Shown here: piece by piece, positions 1,322 through 18,452 of the stretch
How positions within the stretch are numbered: position 1 is the stretch's first letter
Layout of the letters: every line of letters starts with the position of its first letter
Source of the DNA: a virus
Lineage: Duplodnaviria > Caudoviricetes
Reading direction: 5' to 3' (one strand)
DNA length: 25,694 nucleotides
IMG/VR virus record: IMGVR_UViG_3300016652_000041
Location: 1-25,694 of that record
Program-made: the position numbers and the translations under genes
The notes under the pieces: generated by a model
The model's input: the letters and a program-made list of their open reading frames with translations, nothing else
What the model was told of the DNA's origin: nothing
The model's database searches: none

Positions 1322-2039
1322 TCCGTATTTGGCTAAGGCGATCTATTCGGTGCGCTATCAGAGTGTGCCGGTGGATCACTATGTCTTTGTGGATGGTAAG
1401 CAGTATTGGTCTAAGGCGTATGAGATTACGAGGCAGTATCCGCATTTGAAGGTTTACCAGTTGCCTGAGAACACTGGGAGCAATGGGTTTAATGGGCATC
1501 GCATTTATGCGGCCTCATCGTTTTTGGTCAATGCTGACTATGTGTTTTTCTTAGATGAGGATAATTACTATGACTCCGATCATGTGGAGTCTTGTATGGC
1601 TTTGATACAGAAAAATGGTTTGGACTGGGCGTATTCCTTACGCAAGATTGTGGGTGAGGATGGTGAGTACCTGTGCCATGATGATTGTGATTCTCTTGGC
1701 TTTTATGGGAACTATTGTGATGGTCGCCCCGGCTTTGTGGATACTTCTTGCTATGCCTTTTCGTTGAAGGTTTTAACGACTCTTGGTCATGTTTGGTATA
1801 GCAATGAGTACACGACAGACTTTAGGTTTTATCAGTATGTGTCTGCCATTTTTCCCAAGTATGGCTGCACAGGGCAGTACACCAGTGAGTATCGGCTGCA
1901 TGGTAAGACCTTCCCAAGGTTTAAGGGTTGGTTTACTCCCGGTAATGCCAATGCTAGACAACAACATCCCAAGGCGTTTCCTTGGGCAACACCTAAAGTA
2001 AATGAGCCATCACCAATTCAACATAAAGCAGTTCTATAA
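1287..2039 (+). CDS. Glycosyltransferase family 2 (GT-A fold)
   Basis: N-terminal IAIVTPT..YLAKAIYSVRYQ, VFVDG, and FFLDEDNYY (DxD motif). Start set at ATG 1287 (MKIAIV). Confidence 0.85.
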   Translation: MKIAIVTPTTGNPYLAKAIYSVRYQSVPVDHYVFVDGKQYWSKAYEITRQYPHLKVYQLPENTGSNGFNGHRIYAASSFLVNADYVFFLDEDNYYDSDHVESCMALIQKNGLDWAYSLRKIVGEDGEYLCHDDCDSLGFYGNYCDGRPGFVDTSCYAFSLKVLTTLGHVWYSNEYTTDFRFYQYVSAIFPKYGCTGQYTSEYRLHGKTFPRFKGWFTPGNANARQQHPKAFPWATPKVNEPSPIQHKAVL

Positions 2040-3771
2040 GTTCTGCCAGCAGTTAAAGATTGAATCCAAGGAAAGAGGGATGATTACCCTTGGAGACACG
2101 CTTCTTGGAAGCCAGACCTATGTGATGGATGAGGTGGGCAAGGGACTCAATGATGGGGTTCACTTCTTTATAGTCCTGAAAGGACGGCAGCTTGGTATCA
2201 CCACCATCAGTCTTGCGCTTGATCTTTATTGGCACTTCCTGCACCCCGGTATGCAAGGCACCCTGACAACTGATACAGAGGAGAACAGGGAGCAGTTTAG
2301 AAGTACCTTGCAGATGTACATGGATGGCTTGCCAAAAGAGTACAAGATTCCTTTGCTCAGTCATAACCGCAATCAATTGGTTCTGAAGAACAGGTCTAGG
2401 TTGTTCTATCAGGTGGCTGGTTTGAGGGCCAAGGGTTCGCTTGGTCGGGGCAAAGGGATCACCTTTTTGCATGGCACGGAGACAAGTTCATGGGGCGATG
2501 AGGAGGGTTTAGCGTCCCTGCTTGCTTCTCTTGCAGAGACTAACCCGCTGCGCTATTACATGTTTGAGAGTACCGCCCGTGGCTTTAATATGTTCCACGA
2601 CATGTGGGTGACGGCTAAGAGGGCCAAGACTCAGAAGGCTATCTTCTGTGGCTGGTGGAGAAACCAGTTTTATTCAGTCAATGCTGATAGCAACATCTAC
2701 AAAGTGTACTGGGATGGAAAACTTAACTCCGAGGAAAAAGAATGGGTCAGAGAGATCAAGAAGATATACGGAGTGGAGATCAACTCACGCCAGATAGCTT
2801 GGTGGCGATGGAAGATGCACGAAGGACTGAAAGACGAGAGTTTGATGTATCAGGAGTTCCCGCCCACGGAAGACTATGCTTTCATAATGACGGGAACATC
2901 TTTTTTCTCTACGGCTCGATGTACGGACGCTGCGAAACTTGCAAAGAAGAATGTACCGGATCACTACCGATTCGTTTTTGGATCGAACTTTGAAGACACC
3001 CAGTTAATCAAGTCTACAGAGCGTCTAGCCACCCTGCTAATCTGGGAAGAACCCAAACCCAATGGCTACTATGTCATTGGTGCAGACCCCGCCTACGGCT
3101 CATCAGACTGGGCTGACCGCTTCTGCATACAGGTCTATAGATGCTACGCAGATGGTATGGATCAGGTGGCAGAATTTGCCACTGCTGAACTCAACACTTA
3201 TCAGTTTGCTTGGGTAATTTGCTACCTTGCTGGCTTGTATAAGAACTCGGTCTTAAACCTTGAGATTCAAGGTGGTGGGCAGGCAGTTATCAACGAGATG
3301 CGTAACTTAAAGCGTCTAGCCACTGCTATGCCCGGAGGCTATGGTAAGGCGCTTACCGATGTACTGTCGCACATGCAGTATTACCTCTGGCGGCGCAATG
3401 ACTCCCTTGGCGGCATCTCCAATAGCCTTGGTTGGCTGACTACTAGTCAGACCAAAGAGAGGATGCTTAACTACTTCAAGGATTACTTTGAGCGAGGCAT
3501 GTTAAGGGTCAGTAGCATGGATTTATTAGATGAGATGAAATCAATCACCCGTGATGGCTCACAGATTGCTGCCTATGGGAGAGGTAAGGATGACCGTGTG
3601 ATGGCTACAGGCTTGGCCTGCGCTGCCTTTGCCGAACAATTACAACCAAGGCTGATCCAAGGCAAGTTAACCAGAGAGCGTCAGGCACCCATTGAAGACA
3701 AGACTGCTGACCAGATGGCTTATCAGAGGAATGTCACCGACTATCTAAAGCGCATTGGCTATGGAACATAG
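2002..3771 (+). CDS. terL: Terminase large subunit
   Basis: Walker A LKGRQLGITT, Walker B variant FLHGTE, coupling motif ESTARG, RNase H-like nuclease motifs IGADPAYG and DDRVMA; upstream of portal. Confidence 0.92.
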   Translation: MSHHQFNIKQFYKFCQQLKIESKERGMITLGDTLLGSQTYVMDEVGKGLNDGVHFFIVLKGRQLGITTISLALDLYWHFLHPGMQGTLTTDTEENREQFRSTLQMYMDGLPKEYKIPLLSHNRNQLVLKNRSRLFYQVAGLRAKGSLGRGKGITFLHGTETSSWGDEEGLASLLASLAETNPLRYYMFESTARGFNMFHDMWVTAKRAKTQKAIFCGWWRNQFYSVNADSNIYKVYWDGKLNSEEKEWVREIKKIYGVEINSRQIAWWRWKMHEGLKDESLMYQEFPPTEDYAFIMTGTSFFSTARCTDAAKLAKKNVPDHYRFVFGSNFEDTQLIKSTERLATLLIWEEPKPNGYYVIGADPAYGSSDWADRFCIQVYRCYADGMDQVAEFATAELNTYQFAWVICYLAGLYKNSVLNLEIQGGGQAVINEMRNLKRLATAMPGGYGKALTDVLSHMQYYLWRRNDSLGGISNSLGWLTTSQTKERMLNYFKDYFERGMLRVSSMDLLDEMKSITRDGSQIAAYGRGKDDRVMATGLACAAFAEQLQPRLIQGKLTRERQAPIEDKTADQMAYQRNVTDYLKRIGYGT

Positions 3772-4180: not shown

Positions 4181-4602
4181 TCAAAGAATGGAAATGCGAA
4201 GAACACGGATACTTTGAGAGCAAAACAGCACAATGCCCACAAGGATGCACCAATGGCATCTCTCAAGTATTCCTAACACCAGTTGCTATGAAGTCAGACA
4301 AGACTAAGCATAGTGACAAGACATTAAAGCAATTAGCGATGGATTTTAATATGACGGATATAAAGAGTGCCCGTGAGGGTGAGGCGCAGCCGCCTCGTTT
4401 TGCCCAACCCAAGCCGCAGCCTGAGAATCCTTTTGCTGTGCGTTGGGGAAGTCCCGGTTCGATTGGCAATTACAACGTGCGCTCGGTTGCTGGTGAGAAT
4501 GTCAATGGTCTGGCTGCTGTCAAACAATCTGGCGTACAGTTGACAAAACCTAGAACAGCCTCGTACATTGCAGATCATCAGAACTTGAAGATTGACAAGT
4601 AA
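4174..4602 (+). CDS. Zinc-ribbon (FmdB-like) phage protein
   Basis: N-terminal EWKCEEHGYFE...CPQGC; commonly found between terminase and portal; TAATG coupling to portal. Confidence 0.65.
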   Translation: MVIKEWKCEEHGYFESKTAQCPQGCTNGISQVFLTPVAMKSDKTKHSDKTLKQLAMDFNMTDIKSAREGEAQPPRFAQPKPQPENPFAVRWGSPGSIGNYNVRSVAGENVNGLAAVKQSGVQLTKPRTASYIADHQNLKIDK

Positions 4603-6233
4603 TGCGGATACCGTCAAAAGATGCTGACCGACTTTTCTTTGTACTTGACCTGATACGCAAGTGCGAAATCTCGGTTGAGCAGCGCAAAACGACGTACAAC
4701 ACGCTACGCAATTACTTCCTGTTTGGCTCTGCACCCAATGACTCGCCAGCAGCCTTTAACAAGATTTACCCGCACATTGACCAGTTAGTCTCTTTCCTCT
4801 ACTCGGCAGAGACTACCCGCTTTAACGTCCATCTGGGCGCTACCGTCAATGAGCATGAGCATAAGAAAGTTCCTCGCCTTATCTCCGCACTGTCTGACGA
4901 ATGGCTTAACTCCAATGCAGACATGGTGTTTAACGAGGCATTGACTTGGGCGCTTTGCTACAACAGCACCTTTATCAAACTGGCGTGGCGCAATAGCGTC
5001 CATCCGTTCTTCGTAGAACCCGGAGCCATTGGTGTGCTGCGTGAGGACGTTCCCTACACGGATCGTCAAGAAGCTATCTCACAAAAGTACTACATCACCA
5101 AGTCTGAGTTGATGTCTAGGCTCTACAACCACCCAGACCGTGATCGCATCGTCAAAGAGATTACCTACATGCCCCACCAAAGGACGGATTCGCCTCAAGG
5201 TGTCTCCCGTCTGATTACCTCTCAGATCAACCCAGTCATGTACGGCAACGTCAACCTAGACTTGCAAAGCACCAACATGTACAAGCCCAATGTGGCTGAA
5301 GACACGGTGGAAATGACCGAGTTGTGGGTGTTTGATGATGAAATCAATGACTATCGGGTGTTTACGGTTGCAGACCCCGGTGTGGTGATCTACGACCGTC
5401 CGGGTGAGCAGTTATTCCTCAAAGGTGAGTTGCCCTTTGTTCAAATCTGCCCCAACCCGCAATACGACTACTACTGGGGTCAATCTGAGGTACAACGCCT
5501 GATCTACCTGCAAGACATGCGTAATAAACGCATGGGCGAGATCATGGACTTGCTTGCCAAACAGGTGTCCCCGCCAACAGCCTTGATCGGCTTTACAGGT
5601 ATCTTGGATGAGAAAGATTTTGCTCTTAACCGTGCTGGTGGTTTGCTTGCAACCGATATGCCAAACGCAAAGATTGAAAAACTATCTCCAAACATCCCAA
5701 ATGATGCCTTTAGAGAGATTAACGAGATAGATAACATGTTTGCAGAGATGTCTGGTATCTCTTCAGTCCTGCAAGGACGGGGGGAATCAGGGGTGCGCTC
5801 TGCCGGACATGCCAGTCAATTAGCCCGTCTAGGCTCCTCAAGAGCCAAAAAACGGGCGCTCATCATCGAGGATTCCCTTGAAAAGGTGGCTACGCTATAC
5901 CTAAAGATGATGCAACGCTACGATAACCGGCACTACAAGGACGAAGACAACCTGCCGTTTATCATTGAACAGTTCACAAAAGACTTTGTGGTGAAGGTGG
6001 ATGCCCACTCTAACTCCCCAATCTTTATGGAAGACAGCCGTTCGCTTGCATTTAACCTCTTCAAGGCCGGTGCATTGACTAAAGAACGGTTGATAGATAT
6101 GGTGGAACCACCGTTGAGGCAATTAATTAAGGAAGACCTTAGAAAAATGGCTCAACAACCGCAGCAACCACAAGCAGGAGGCGCTCAACCTGCTCAACCA
6201 AAAGAGAGCGCACCAATGCAAAGGGTGAAATGA
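4602..6233 (+). CDS. Portal protein (podovirus/P22-like)
   Basis: 543 aa between terL and head genes; LPFVQ..YYWGQSEV..LIYLQ, MSGISSVLQG..SGVRSA motifs; Q/P-rich C-terminal tail. Confidence 0.85.
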   Translation: MRIPSKDADRLFFVLDLIRKCEISVEQRKTTYNTLRNYFLFGSAPNDSPAAFNKIYPHIDQLVSFLYSAETTRFNVHLGATVNEHEHKKVPRLISALSDEWLNSNADMVFNEALTWALCYNSTFIKLAWRNSVHPFFVEPGAIGVLREDVPYTDRQEAISQKYYITKSELMSRLYNHPDRDRIVKEITYMPHQRTDSPQGVSRLITSQINPVMYGNVNLDLQSTNMYKPNVAEDTVEMTELWVFDDEINDYRVFTVADPGVVIYDRPGEQLFLKGELPFVQICPNPQYDYYWGQSEVQRLIYLQDMRNKRMGEIMDLLAKQVSPPTALIGFTGILDEKDFALNRAGGLLATDMPNAKIEKLSPNIPNDAFREINEIDNMFAEMSGISSVLQGRGESGVRSAGHASQLARLGSSRAKKRALIIEDSLEKVATLYLKMMQRYDNRHYKDEDNLPFIIEQFTKDFVVKVDAHSNSPIFMEDSRSLAFNLFKAGALTKERLIDMVEPPLRQLIKEDLRKMAQQPQQPQAGGAQPAQPKESAPMQRVK

Positions 6234-6397
6234 TGGCAAAACAAGCAACTGGCGGCAGCATGGTGGGCGATCAGCCCCGTATGAGTCAGAAATCCATCAG
6301 AGAGTTCTCCGATAGGACTCCAACAGTCACATATTCTCAAAAACGCATCGGTCAAGTAAAGTCTGACCGAACACAGCGCAGTTATGGCAGGGGCTAA
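6230..6397 (+). CDS. Small basic hypothetical protein (55 aa; not in ORF track)
   Basis: ATGA overlap with portal stop; MMAKQATGGSMVGDQPRMSQKSIREFSDRTPTVTYSQKRIGQVKSDRTQRSYGRG. Confidence 0.7.
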   Translation: MMAKQATGGSMVGDQPRMSQKSIREFSDRTPTVTYSQKRIGQVKSDRTQRSYGRG

Positions 6398-6414
6398 CTC
6401 TCTAGGAGAAGACT

Positions 6415-6459
6415 ATGTACGCTAAGAAAATGAAGCGTGGTCGGAAAACACGGCGCTAA
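6415..6459 (+). CDS. Arg/Lys-rich micropeptide MYAKKMKRGRKTRR (14 aa)
   Basis: AGGAGA (6404-6409) 5 nt before ATG; leader closely resembles that of the major capsid gene; 8 of 14 residues basic. Confidence 0.65.
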   Translation: MYAKKMKRGRKTRR

Positions 6460-6462
6460 AGG

Positions 6463-6514
6463 TTTCCTTAATCAGGAAAAGGGTATGGCTGCTTGCCCTG
6501 TGAACTAGGTGGCC
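6463..6514 (+). other. Structured RNA: hairpin plus H-type pseudoknot candidate
   Basis: TTTCCT/AGGAAA hairpin (6463-6479); AGGGTA/TGCCCT stem (6480-6499) whose loop GGCTGCT can pair with GGTGGCC (6508-6514). Confidence 0.45.
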
Positions 6515-6537
6515 CCTGCTATTGAAAGGAATCGATC

Positions 6538-6579
6538 ATGGCACGCAAAGCTCGCAAAGGCCGTAAGGCTCGCAAGTAA
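6538..6579 (+). CDS. Arg/Lys-rich micropeptide MARKARKGRKARK (13 aa)
   Basis: GAAAGGA (6524-6530) 7 nt before ATG; four (A/G)RK repeats encoded with varying synonymous codons. Confidence 0.7.
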   Translation: MARKARKGRKARK

Positions 6580-6580
6580 T

Positions 6581-6649
6581 TGGTAGCCCTTCGGGGCTTC
6601 CATTCAGGGGGTGGCTAGTCCACCCCTTGACAAAACAATGTTTTTTTTT
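6581..6649 (+). terminator. Tandem hairpins followed by T9 tract (terminator or 3' stability element)
   Basis: TGGTAGCCC-TTCG-GGGCTTCCA (cUUCGg loop) and TCAGGGGGTGG-CTAGT-CCACCCCTTGA; T9 at 6641-6649 is 10 nt from the stem, so not a canonical geometry. Confidence 0.45.
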
Positions 6650-6675
6650 AACCTTTGTCGTAAGTAAGTACTAAC
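6627..6675 (+). promoter_or_regulatory. Sigma70-like promoter with downstream 16-bp palindromic site
   Basis: TTGACA (6627-6632)-16 nt-TAACCT (6649-6654); GTAAGT-AAGT-ACTAAC (6660-6675) overlaps the expected +1. Confidence 0.5.
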
Positions 6676-6685
6676 TGAGGGTGTT

Positions 6686-7135
6686 ATGGACGGACAAGAC
6701 AAGAAAATGATGGAACTACTGAAGCGGGACGCTAATGCGGCTCCCACTACGCCACCGTCTTCTCTTGCCGAAGCTGAAACCCCTCCTACTGGCTCTCCCA
6801 TGAGTACGCCTGAACCCAAAGAGGGTGAGAGGGCCGCTGCCAAAATTAACATCCAGATTGCGATGGATTTGCTTCAGCAATCCCTGCCTGCCATTGGTTC
6901 AGACACCGAAGAGGGCAAAGCACTCATGGATACGGTCAAGGGTCTAGCGAAAGTCTTTGGAAAGCCAGAGGCTCGGACGCAAGAACTCATCCCGTCAGAG
7001 ATTATTCAGATGATGCAAACGCTGCCTCAAGCGGCGGGGGCAACACCGGAGCAAAAGGTGGTTCAGTCTCAACCGGCTGTTCAACCACCGATGCCTCCAC
7101 AACCACCGGCAGGTCAACCCACTCCACCCATGTAA
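6686..7135 (+). CDS. Hypothetical head-module protein, Pro-rich termini
   Basis: RBS GAGGG; helical core flanked by P/Q/T-rich tails; between portal and capsid genes. Confidence 0.75.
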   Translation: MDGQDKKMMELLKRDANAAPTTPPSSLAEAETPPTGSPMSTPEPKEGERAAAKINIQIAMDLLQQSLPAIGSDTEEGKALMDTVKGLAKVFGKPEARTQELIPSEIIQMMQTLPQAAGATPEQKVVQSQPAVQPPMPPQPPAGQPTPPM

Positions 7136-7147
7136 AGGAGATTTATC

Positions 7148-7333
7148 ATGGATTTGTTCAAACCCCGTGGCGCAAGTCACATCCGTGGCCCCGTTGACAA
7201 CAAGAAAGAAAACGGGCAAATCAACAACCCACCTCGGTTTAGCGAAATCGGTGGTCTTAACAGTCCCAGTGATGCGACTGCTAAGAACAAGATGACGCTC
7301 TCTAAACCCGGTGATACCAAAAAAGTAATCTAA
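7148..7333 (+). CDS. Small hypothetical head-module protein
   Basis: Strong RBS AAAGGAG; tiles in operon. Confidence 0.75.
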   Translation: MDLFKPRGASHIRGPVDNKKENGQINNPPRFSEIGGLNSPSDATAKNKMTLSKPGDTKKVI

Positions 7334-7352
7334 CTCTAGGAAGGGGCTAACT

Positions 7353-7883
7353 ATGAGTCTGGAAAACTACACAGCAGAACAATTGGAAGAACTCGCTCTT
7401 CTGAGCAAAACCTTGGCTGAGAACAAAGAAACTCGTAAAGACTTTCTGCGTTTGACCAAAAGGGTTCGTCCTGACCTTCCCATTCCTGAACTTGAAGTCG
7501 AAGACACCGCTAATAAGTTAGCGAGTACTTACGAACAAAAGTTGCAGGCGATGGAAGCAAAACTGGCTGAGAAGGATGCCCGTGAAGAACTCTCCAAGCG
7601 CAGGGATGCCCTCAAAGCATCTGGCAAGGCTAGGAGTTCTGAGGACATTGAGGCCATTGAGAAGGTCATGCTGGAAAAGGGTATTACCAACCATGACGCT
7701 GCGGCAGATTATTGGAAGTGGATGCAGGAGACTGCTACTCCCACTCCCAGTGCTTTCCCGAAGCCAGTCATGCAACAGTTTGATGTCAACGGCTACATGA
7801 AGAATCCCGTAGTCGCTGCCAGAGAAGAAGCGATGAAAGCCTTTGAAGAATTGCGTAAGGCTCCTCGTCCAATCGGTTTGTAG
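7353..7883 (+). CDS. Putative scaffolding protein
   Basis: Highly charged coiled-coil protein immediately upstream of the major capsid gene. Confidence 0.6.
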   Translation: MSLENYTAEQLEELALLSKTLAENKETRKDFLRLTKRVRPDLPIPELEVEDTANKLASTYEQKLQAMEAKLAEKDAREELSKRRDALKASGKARSSEDIEAIEKVMLEKGITNHDAAADYWKWMQETATPTPSAFPKPVMQQFDVNGYMKNPVVAAREEAMKAFEELRKAPRPIGL

Positions 7884-7917: not shown

Positions 7918-8919
7918 ATGGCTATAGGCGGCGGCATCATTCCAGCTTCGGGAAGTAATCAGTTCAACGAGTTGACCTATGTCACCCGTAGAGCGTTCAT
8001 CCCCAAGATGGTGGTGCAAATCTACAACTCGACACCTTTAATGGCTGCTCTGCTAGCTAATAGCCAGCAAGCGTCAGGCGGTGTGTCTTCGGTGACTGTC
8101 CCTGTTCAGGGCGCTCAATTTGTCAATGCTCAGTGGTCTGACTACTCTGGCTCTTTCGCTCAACCGAGCGTTCAGCAGGGTGCTTATAACGCTGAGTTCA
8201 ACCTCAAACTGATGATCTGCCCCGTACCGTTCCTCGGTATGGAAGGTGCCGTTCAGCAGGATTACGCTATTGTCCCCCTGATCGAGGCTCGTATGAACGA
8301 TGCGACCAACGTCATGCTGGACTCAATGGCTTACTCCCTGTACAACAACACCAGCGATACTCAGCAATTTACCGGCCTGCCTGCTGCGGTTTCCGCTACC
8401 GGCACCTACGGTAACATTGACCGGTCTCAGTATTCTTGGTGGCAGTCTAAGGCTTATGCCGCAGGCTCCGTCAACCCCACTCGTCAGAACTTGCTCCAGT
8501 ACATTTCCGGTACGGTTAAGAACTGTGCAGAAGTTCCTTCGTTTGGCGTTTGCGGATTCGGTACTTGGACGCTGCTTGCTCAAGACTTCGTAGGTCAAGA
8601 GCAGTATGTGATTACTCCGGGTTCCGCATTTACTAGCGATCCTAATGGCGCACAGGCTGCTTTCCGTGCCCTGATGGTTGCTGGTGTTCCCATTTATCCT
8701 GACCCCTACTGCCCAGAGGGAACTCTGTACCTGTTGAACAACAACTACCTGTCGCTCTATATCCATGAGCAGGGTTCGTTTGCGTTCACCGGTTTTGAGT
8801 CAACCCTACCGAACTGGCAGATTGGATATGTTGGCGCTGTTCTGACCATTGCTGAACTGGTTAGCACCAAGCCCAAGTCCATGACTGCGGTCACGGGTTA
8901 CAACTATCTGTCACTATAA
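7918..8919 (+). CDS. Major capsid protein (HK97-fold)
   Basis: 333 aa; strong RBS AGGAGA; QFTGLPAAV, GTYGNIDRSQYSWWQ, GVPIYPDPYCPEGTLYLLNNNYL motifs typical of this capsid class; strongly biased codons. Confidence 0.88.
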   Translation: MAIGGGIIPASGSNQFNELTYVTRRAFIPKMVVQIYNSTPLMAALLANSQQASGGVSSVTVPVQGAQFVNAQWSDYSGSFAQPSVQQGAYNAEFNLKLMICPVPFLGMEGAVQQDYAIVPLIEARMNDATNVMLDSMAYSLYNNTSDTQQFTGLPAAVSATGTYGNIDRSQYSWWQSKAYAAGSVNPTRQNLLQYISGTVKNCAEVPSFGVCGFGTWTLLAQDFVGQEQYVITPGSAFTSDPNGAQAAFRALMVAGVPIYPDPYCPEGTLYLLNNNYLSLYIHEQGSFAFTGFESTLPNWQIGYVGAVLTIAELVSTKPKSMTAVTGYNYLSL

Positions 8920-15731: not shown

Positions 15732-16256
15732 GTGCCACAAGGTAGATTCCACAAAAATCAAAGCGGGCAAAAAATTGGGATGCTTACGCTTTTGAAGTTG
15801 ACCGATCAAAAAACTGCCAATGGTGGCTATAAATATCTGGTCAAGTGTGACTGCGGAACGGAAAAGATTATTGGGTATAGTTACATGACCCAAAACAAAA
15901 CGCAGTCATGTGGATGTTTACAAAGGCGCAAAGGAGTAAACAGTCCAAACTTTAAACATGGCCTATCTCAGAATAGAGATTCGGTAGAGTACAAACGCTA
16001 TCAGCGTGAGTGTTTTGATAAGCACAAATACAATCTTGAGCCAGAGCAAAAAACTGCATTGATTGAAAGTCAAAACAATTCTTGCGCTATCTGCTCCTAT
16101 GAGTTTGGGCAAAAAGTTGGAGATATGAAAGTTGACCATGACCATGCAACAGGTAAGGTTCGTGGCTTATTGTGTGACTTATGCAACCGTGGTCTTGGGA
16201 TGTTCAAAGATAGCCAAGACAATCTGAATAAAGCAATCTCTTATCTAGCGAGGTAA
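15732..16256 (+). mobile_element. Free-standing homing endonuclease, endonuclease VII (His-Me finger) domain
   Basis: N-terminal KCDCG..SCGC module; C-terminal QNNSCAIC..VDHDHATGKVRGLLCDLCNRGLGMFKD; more A-rich than flanks; interrupts fibre module. Confidence 0.82.
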
Positions 16257-18084: not shown

Positions 18085-18452
18085 TTGCGGAAACTATCAT
18101 TGGCGCTCTAGTACCTGTTGGTGTTGAAGGCATCAAGCAGGTGGTTGCCCGTTTCTTTGGCGGGGTAAGAGCAACAACGATAGATGAGCAGATCAAGTTA
18201 GATGAGAATGAAATCAAGCGTATTGAGGCACTGGCTCGACTGGATACTCCTATTGGCACTCCTAGCCAATGGGTTGTTGACCTTCGGGCCTCTGCTCGTT
18301 ACGTTGGTGCTCTAGTTGTTATTGCCGTTGGAATCATAACCATTCTGACAGGCACCGATGCCAAGGTGCAAGAGATAGCATTGCAGGCGGCAAATATTTC
18401 CTTTGGCTTCTTGTTTGGTAGTCGTATTGTGACTGGGTGGCAGAAAAAATGA
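18081..18452 (+). CDS. Putative holin (3-TM type)
   Basis: Hydrophobic segments, SQWVVDLRASAR and FGFLFGSR motifs; ATGA overlap with endolysin. Confidence 0.65.
   Translation: MIAETIIGALVPVGVEGIKQVVARFFGGVRATTIDEQIKLDENEIKRIEALARLDTPIGTPSQWVVDLRASARYVGALVVIAVGIITILTGTDAKVQEIALQAANISFGFLFGSRIVTGWQKK

Follow-up and report, generated by a model that had tools for sequence, protein, structure and literature searches.

A conserved cassette of lysine- and arginine-rich micro-genes with a predicted RNA pseudoknot in the head module of uncultured tailed phages

The window, i.e., the whole 25,694-nucleotide stretch of DNA analysed here (virus record completeness estimated at 72%), contains the head module of a tailed phage, with genes for the terminase, the portal and the major head protein (Table 1). 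The portal gene is followed by a short cassette that begins with ORF55, continues with two very small open reading frames, micro-ORF1 and micro-ORF2 (hereafter ORF1 and ORF2), and is followed by ORF149. Positional equivalents of ORF55 occur in most of the relatives displayed, and Pfam, PHROG and Atlas gave it no assignment. The ORF149 product is rich in Pro and is predicted to form a helical hairpin; neither a family nor a significant fold match was found for it, and Atlas returned only unnamed clusters. A preliminary description of this DNA placed the micro-ORFs between portal and head genes, with the scaffold gene as the downstream boundary; the general setting holds, but the next gene is ORF149, and the scaffold-like protein is more likely the all-helical product of ORF176, whose predicted fold gave no significant match. 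That description also overlooked the noncoding DNA within and after the cassette, namely a hairpin (P0), a predicted pseudoknot and two further hairpins. Two other reading frames were noted in passing: a small conserved one in the head module, without a family match, and one among the tail genes whose Cys/His motifs look, by eye, like those of an HNH-type endonuclease.

Table 1. Features of the head module and the micro-gene cassette in the window.
Feature	Positions	Strand	Details
Terminase gene	2002-3771		
Portal gene	4602-6233		
Candidate sigma-70-type promoter	6075-6103	+	In portal 3' end; TTGACT-17-TATGGT, consensus match only
ORF55	6230-6397	+	55 aa, overlaps portal stop; 11 K/R, 4 D/E, net +7
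Shine-Dalgarno of ORF1	6404-6408	+	AGGAG, 6-nt spacer
ORF1	6415-6459	+	ATG at 6415, TAA ends at 6459; 14 aa, 8 K/R; MYAKKMKRGRKTRR
Hairpin P0	6463-6479	+	Immediately 3' of ORF1 stop
Predicted H-type pseudoknot	6480-6514	+	S1 6480-6483/6496-6499; S2 6487-6494/6507-6514
Shine-Dalgarno of ORF2	6526-6530	+	AAGGA, 7-nt spacer
ORF2	6538-6579	+	ATG at 6538, TAA ends at 6579; 13 aa, 8 K/R; MARKARKGRKARK
Two stable hairpins 3' of ORF2	6581-6630	+	UUCG-capped, then G/C stem
Candidate promoter after ORF2	6627-6654	+	TTGACA with weak -10 TAACCT
ORF149	6686-7135		149 aa
Small conserved ORF	7148-7333		61 aa, net +5
ORF176	7353-7883		Scaffold-like protein (more likely than ORF149)
Major head protein gene	7918-8919		
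ORF with Cys/His motifs	15732-16256		174 aa

Re-derivation of the frames and charges returned what had first been described for both ORFs, i.e., a strong, well-spaced Shine-Dalgarno (SD) sequence with eight K/R and no D/E residues each, together with the mixed synonymous codons of ORF2. Micro-ORFs were then defined by a filter requiring an ATG, an SD, 8-25 codons, at least 45% K/R and no D/E. Exactly these two ORFs pass it on both strands of the window, where the chance expectation is 0.01 (order 1) or 0.05 (order 3) matches per window, as estimated from Markov-resampled windows (100 each); among resampled intervals, one in 5000 held a single match and none in 5000 held two. The remark that such genes fall below the size recognised by gene callers is borne out by both GenBank relatives, which are uncultured, carry the ORF pair and are annotated with minus-strand hypotheticals at its site; these two records, from a spring, bear the only habitat labels encountered.

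Portal queries fetched 269 loci with a portal of at least 58% identity, and 221 contained the whole interval to the ORF149 homologue; these reduce to 178 distinct intervals, whose sequences are related and do not represent independent lineages. The search in relatives that the preliminary description had proposed as a check, and whose failure would have refuted it, found basic micro-ORFs in most: at least one is present in 169 of the 178 distinct portal-selected intervals, the counts by filter being none in 9, one in 35, two in 120, three in 13 and four in 1. Near-identical peptides are duplicated to three copies in 13/178 intervals. Seven of the 178 truly lack a micro-ORF; the other two filter-negative intervals are L528, with a longer and less basic ORF in place of a filter-passing one, and L038. 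In the latter, the ORF2 start is ATA and both SD and pseudoknot are intact, as in a fresh pseudogene, a rare start or an assembly error. A context-blind pattern made of the SD and the first seven codons of ORF2 yielded 120 loci. Among the 80 with long flanks, 78 encode a 10-15-aa peptide beside a portal or ORF149 homologue, the remaining two being unrelated longer ORFs, and all 40 short loci encode 10-15-aa peptides (ORF149 match in 17). By scan estimate, some 340 viral stretches carry this pattern.

The cassette extends well beyond close relatives. With remote portals (26-52% identity), 16 of 19 distinct loci have a K/R micro-ORF followed by a gene for a Pro-rich, ORF149-like protein, the likeness being judged by eye where tblastn was silent; one of the other three (L472) has none, and two contigs end too soon. 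The head-module position is thus held across portals of 26-96% identity. Absence is also found: complete genome G001 has no K/R micro-ORF anywhere, and G002 has none at the locus and a single minus-strand candidate elsewhere, whereas the control genomes G003 and G004 have micro-ORFs at the expected locus. No K/R micro-ORF lies between the portal and capsid genes of Mx8, Mx9 and BUCT555, which are cultured phages with distantly related capsids. In a quick tree of 61 portals, hand-picked to cover cassette types, losses fall inside groups of carriers at two or more points, and the cassette type of L027 differs from that of its sister L017. From these sequences, the micro-genes look ancestral, exchangeable and accessory, and the cassette is a deeply conserved one in a widespread family of uncultured tailed phages. 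A capsid search matched four MAG contigs (two uncultured betaproteobacteria, one Balneolaceae and one Terrimicrobiaceae); because these are probably binned phage contigs, no host was assigned.

Several variants of the locus were recorded on the way. In L465, the micro-ORF lies 149 nt 3' of the portal stop and begins with an 8-residue, non-basic N-terminal extension containing two Glu before the K/R units, which could conceivably be a cleavable leader. Some loci have a 24-aa ORF1-ORF2-like fusion 3' of the pseudoknot, and in L431 (4156-4313) two inserted tRNA genes separate the portal gene from the leader of the micro-ORF. Stenotrophomonas phage BUCT555 (L550:2942-3100) has a 52-aa basic ORF (14 K/R, 3 D/E) right after the probable portal gene, a testable candidate for a positional analogue of ORF55 in a cultured phage.

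Peptide composition was analysed on ORFs chosen by their position relative to the pseudoknot, at loci not picked by peptide (five ORFs are cut by contig ends). The median K+R fraction is 0.62 among 110 distinct DNA variants of ORF2 and 0.54 among 125 of ORF1, with one variant in each set carrying an acidic residue. Overall, 60% of residues in these peptides are K or R, D accounts for 0.1%, and L, F and V for under 0.5%. In the close clade, R (0.31) and K (0.29) are nearly balanced, in units of (A/G/S)RK; Arg-richer forms are confined to one distant clade (L406, L407, L410). Peptide lengths range from 9 to 24 aa and K and R swap freely; with length and the order of K and R both variable, what is conserved is charge and not a binding motif. 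Values of pN/pS (ungapped, uncorrected) are 0.11-0.54 per length class, with 0.30 for ORF2 (50 variants of 13 aa) and a moderately low 0.41 (13 aa) and 0.53 (14 aa) for the two largest classes of ORF1; lower values of 0.17 and 0.21 were set aside because the rows had been picked by peptide pattern. Variation is mainly synonymous. A DNA-repeat origin of ORF2 was rejected because its variation falls on third positions (0.31 versus 0.08 and 0.10 at the others), in line with the initial suggestion that the peptide is what is selected. Codon usage is more skewed than that of the capsid gene: the CGY share of Arg codons is 0.88 in micro-ORFs, 0.76 in the capsid gene and 0.61 in the portal, and the GCW share of Ala codons is 0.92 in micro-ORFs versus 0.70 in the capsid gene. 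TAA accounts for 211 of the 230 stops that are complete. By these measures, the peptides are under purifying selection, and ORF1 and ORF2 are confirmed, at the level of sequence, as true micro-genes selected as peptides; they are almost certainly translated.

The predicted pseudoknot between the two genes was evaluated on an alignment of 70 distinct spacers (MAFFT, not fitted to the model). Its cells are paired in 92.6% of 903 cases, compared with 83.3% after shuffling and 38-63% for slid controls, compensatory change occurs at 9 of its 13 pairs, and the covariation score is 0.267 versus at most 0.137 in slid controls; the model was derived from the same spacers, which gives it an advantage over slid controls, and these statistics ignore kinship. 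RNAalifold recovered S1 unaided. S2 contains tandem U-G/G-U pairs, and tandem wobble or mismatch pairs are retained in its middle among relatives. The 3' end of the pseudoknot lies 17-25 nt upstream of the ORF2 ATG, with 5-12 nt of mixed sequence before the SD. When the pseudoknot was searched irrespective of context, an SD-led basic micro-ORF came next in 120/120 matches (119 ATG, 1 GTG), and about 480 viral stretches carry the pattern by scan estimate. It is found without ORF1 in some loci, is retained in phages of 38-52% portal identity, and was lost together with ORF2 in L073/L080. The pseudoknot usually precedes the last micro-gene of the cassette; one three-peptide cassette type has none, and a regular expression, which overlooked some variants, left 36/178 intervals without a match. 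Covariance models of Rfam 15 gave no match at E<=5 over 5800-7200; the predicted motif qualifies as a new RNA motif, absent from Rfam. The pseudoknot quite likely controls ORF2 output. Folding of the 70 sequences gave no support for a switch that pairs the SD with an anti-SD, and no conserved hairpin sequestering the SD was seen (median probability that the SD is unpaired: 0.43 with the pseudoknot bases in place, 0.40 after their removal).

Other signals suggest that the cassette could be a transcription unit of its own. Hairpin P0 (-4.3 kcal/mol) is alone no better than shuffles; a hairpin of -2 kcal/mol or better occupies its site in 63/70 relatives, with a GNRA loop in 23. The region after ORF2 (6577-6660) folds at -33.8 kcal/mol (z -4.5, 0/200 shuffles as stable), similar G/C stems occur in relatives, and no U-tract follows immediately downstream; the predicted hairpins are likely to serve as 3' protection of a mini-mRNA. 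No terminator was called on the plus strand in 6100-7400. Upstream of the cassette, a promoter match is present in 71/114 intervals, many of which overlap codons and may be coding by-products. TTGAC is found at the equivalent Leu-Asp site of the portal in 47/54 relatives, versus 59/424 other Leu-Asp sites in these related sequences, and we infer that the candidate promoter in the portal 3' end would drive the ORF55/micro-ORF cassette. Downstream of the last micro-ORF, TTGAC[AT] is present in 95/114 intervals, with a full promoter-like match in 28 only. The site after ORF2, which the consensus scan did not call, is a candidate promoter of the ORF149-to-capsid genes, so that the peptides of close relatives may be encoded on a transcript other than that of the capsid. 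The start of the pseudoknot coincides, to within one base, with a predicted +1 in L087 and L092.

Distant clades have leaders of other kinds, and those of 10 distant loci gave no Rfam match. L416 (2310-2480), L431 (4551-4721) and L480 (3342-3518), with portals of about 28-30% identity, share another, larger conserved RNA leader, in which a long-range helix closes the structure, one stem shows an apparent compensatory change and pseudoknots are possible, again without an Rfam match. A third type, about 100 nt upstream of the micro-ORF in L403, L404 and L471, has two hairpins with complementary loops and a common CCACGGTGAC motif, and in L403 starts near the predicted +1 (all by eye). Directly 5' of the SD of an Arg-rich 13-mer, L406, L407 and L410 have a bulged hairpin whose stem covaries and whose terminal loop is constant. 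In L027, L088, L129 and L418, which encode three peptides and have no pseudoknot, a G-run after ORF1 is complementary to a C-run after ORF2, possibly as a helix spanning the middle gene.

Altogether, the reading that we prefer, with a probability of about 0.5, is that the peptides are sequence-nonspecific polycations, made in bulk from a structurally stabilised mini-mRNA, that would act on phage DNA at head filling. ORF55, ORF1, the hairpin, the pseudoknot, ORF2 and the last hairpins would form one short transcript, and the peptides would be produced in large numbers late in infection, at head assembly. The ORF2 message would begin with the pseudoknot, whether because transcription starts there (+1) or because the A-rich linker is cut; in that position, just upstream of the 30S footprint, the pseudoknot would shield the 5' end and set initiation, and excess peptide might feed back on it, as on the T4 gene 32 mRNA. 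Peptides of 1.5 kDa would require no targeting signal to partition into DNA-filled heads as counter-ions, and would partly neutralise the DNA during and after head filling in a polyamine-like manner. For a genome of 35.5 kb, about 830 copies would cover some 9% of phosphates and take up about 1,500 cubic nm of an assumed head volume of 74,000-92,000 cubic nm.

Conservation of charge only, the presence of one to three copies and the head-module position fit a bulk nucleic-acid polycation, and the peptides probably are nonspecific nucleic-acid polycations; their presence in the mature virion stands at slightly less than even odds. Strong polycations can impede packaging and ejection, which counts against a role in the head. 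So does the account in the accessible text of PMC7096446, where motor-packaging phages are the group without typical positively charged capsid arms. Short basic peptides are described as binding DNA nonspecifically in the part of PMC4797294 that is available. The preliminary description had proposed co-packaged, DNA-condensing peptides; conserved and selected micro-genes stand. An essential structural role is disfavoured by the absence of the cassette from 7/178 intervals and from two complete genomes, and by the lack of a capsid-anchoring motif; the peptides have neither a hydrophobic anchor nor a targeting segment. The polycation function would be accessory rather than essential. A bolder version, in which the peptides are peptide polyamines that occupy the head together with the genome and adjust the pressure of the DNA, their output being set by a pseudoknot operator that free peptide binds once the DNA is saturated, is doubtful.

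The peptides might instead stay in the cytoplasm and, late in infection, act by compacting or coating ribosomes, anionic signalling molecules or the nucleic acid of host or phage, in host shut-off or counter-defence. We regard this as unlikely; it fits the sequence evidence almost as well as the head role. The charge-only, dosage and codon evidence fits both equally, the candidate promoters in the portal 3' end and after ORF2 would set the cassette apart as a separate unit, and repeated loss together with cassette exchange (L027 beside L017) is typical of accessory genes. However, the site between portal and head genes is kept in very distant phages, and in L416, L431, L480 and L433 the next head-module gene starts at a distance of 4-8 nt from the micro-ORF stop. 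Host-takeover genes, moreover, are mostly early.

The constant association of RNA structure with a basic micro-ORF, found behind 120/120 pseudoknot matches, would also be expected of arginine-rich RNA-binding regulators (lambda N or Tat-like) that act on the pseudoknot, P0 or other leaders and control late head genes. The leaders of distant clades differ yet are again structured, and the wobble or mismatch pairs retained in tandem at mid-S2 could be a ligand site. Such a role is nonetheless quite improbable: the pseudoknot core is fixed while peptide length and K/R order vary freely, very similar peptides exist without a pseudoknot (the 36/178 regular-expression-negative intervals, some variants being missed), the peptides leave no space for an activation domain, and copy gain is unexpected of a specific regulator.

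Short ORFs rich in two amino acids and followed by hairpins, with a pseudoknot 3' of a stop codon, could alternatively mean that the act of translation alone matters, the ORFs being Lys/Arg-sensing attenuator leaders or parts of a fusion made by readthrough or frameshifting at the pseudoknot; we give this very little credence. The ORF1-ORF2 gap of 71, 72, 73, 77 or 78 nt does not preserve frame and ORF2 has its own SD and ATG, on which grounds joining of the two ORFs was rejected; the pseudoknot also occurs without ORF1. The attenuator was rejected given that no plus-strand terminator was called in 6100-7400 and that TTGAC is conserved after the cassette, and the codons used are common, acidic residues are excluded and no U-tract lies right behind the hairpins. 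Faintest of all is a function as lysis helpers that displace cations from lipopolysaccharide and destabilise the outer membrane: polycations do permeabilise outer membranes and high expression is predicted, but the peptides are not amphipathic (L, F and V under 0.5%) and have no export signal, and the endolysin gene lies at 18437, about 12 kb away.

Returning to polycations acting at head filling, neutralisation of motor-packaged phage DNA is ascribed to metal ions and polyamines, not to phage proteins, in the accessible text of PMC7096446, and peptides that enter heads would be a missing virion component. They would escape detection, as they are too short for gene callers and are destroyed by trypsin. 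If the feedback reading were true, the cassette would combine a minimal gene 32-type loop with a class of virion component invisible to tryptic proteomics and to gene callers. In any case, a compact RNA motif is tied to a single 13-codon gene, and both peptide and pseudoknot can be synthesised and assayed without a host. The cassette anatomy reads as a device by which a short message with protected ends yields, at head assembly, large amounts of a peptide defined by its charge; the simplest use of this peptide would be as a counter-ion for phage DNA.

Among known systems, protein J of the Microviridae (phiX174/G4) is likewise very small, strongly basic and encoded among capsid genes. Protein J has a hydrophobic C-terminal capsid anchor, whereas the peptides described here end in K/R and have none. 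It is present in the mature virion according to the accessible text of PMC7096446. The present phage is a dsDNA terminase-portal phage (terminase, portal, tailed-phage major head protein and ejection-protein matches) rather than an ssDNA microvirus, and its peptides are of 10-15 aa, with 0-3 copies per genome. Adenovirus mu is a small polycation proposed to neutralise a dsDNA genome. The same proposal exists for the small polycation P6.9 of baculoviruses, in the source text available. Peptides of the protamine/P6.9 type are Arg-dominated with poly-Arg clusters, as far as the available part of PMC3073880 goes, whereas here Lys and Arg are about equal (0.29 and 0.31) without poly-Arg runs. The micro-ORFs also differ from protamines, P6.9 and mu in being translated directly, in belonging to a bacterial virus with a packaging motor and in being dispensable in some lineages. 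By analogy, the peptides may act like J or protamine-type core peptides, yet they fall outside both groups. Topic searches of the literature, with subscription papers mostly outside their scope, did not turn up any description of comparable peptides from tailed phages, and a search with four peptide strings returned irrelevant papers only. The motif strings are absent from the readable supplements of PMC10690425, and the pseudoknot may still be among the candidates in its remaining supplements.

For the RNA element, the closest parallel is the T4/T2 gene 32 operator, also an H-type pseudoknot 5' of the ribosome binding site of a gene whose product, here as well, is probably a nonspecific nucleic-acid binder. 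In the accessible part of PMC3014915, RNase E cuts the gene 32 mRNA just 5' of the operator pseudoknot and this is the most stable T4 mRNA; by this parallel, the A-rich linker 5' of the pseudoknot could be a processing site. In contrast to gene 32, the pseudoknot here occupies roughly -58 to -24, the 5-12 nt between it and the SD form no long A+U-rich tract, and the product is a 13-mer rather than a cooperative SSB. The 5'-UTR pseudoknots of tisB and timP (ribosome standby, S1) also lie upstream of a small ORF and govern its translation, as described in the available text of PMC11228461, whereas the peptide here is no hydrophobic toxin. By analogy, tisB and timP would offer a precedent for activation, and T4 gene 32 a precedent for a processed 5' end and feedback.
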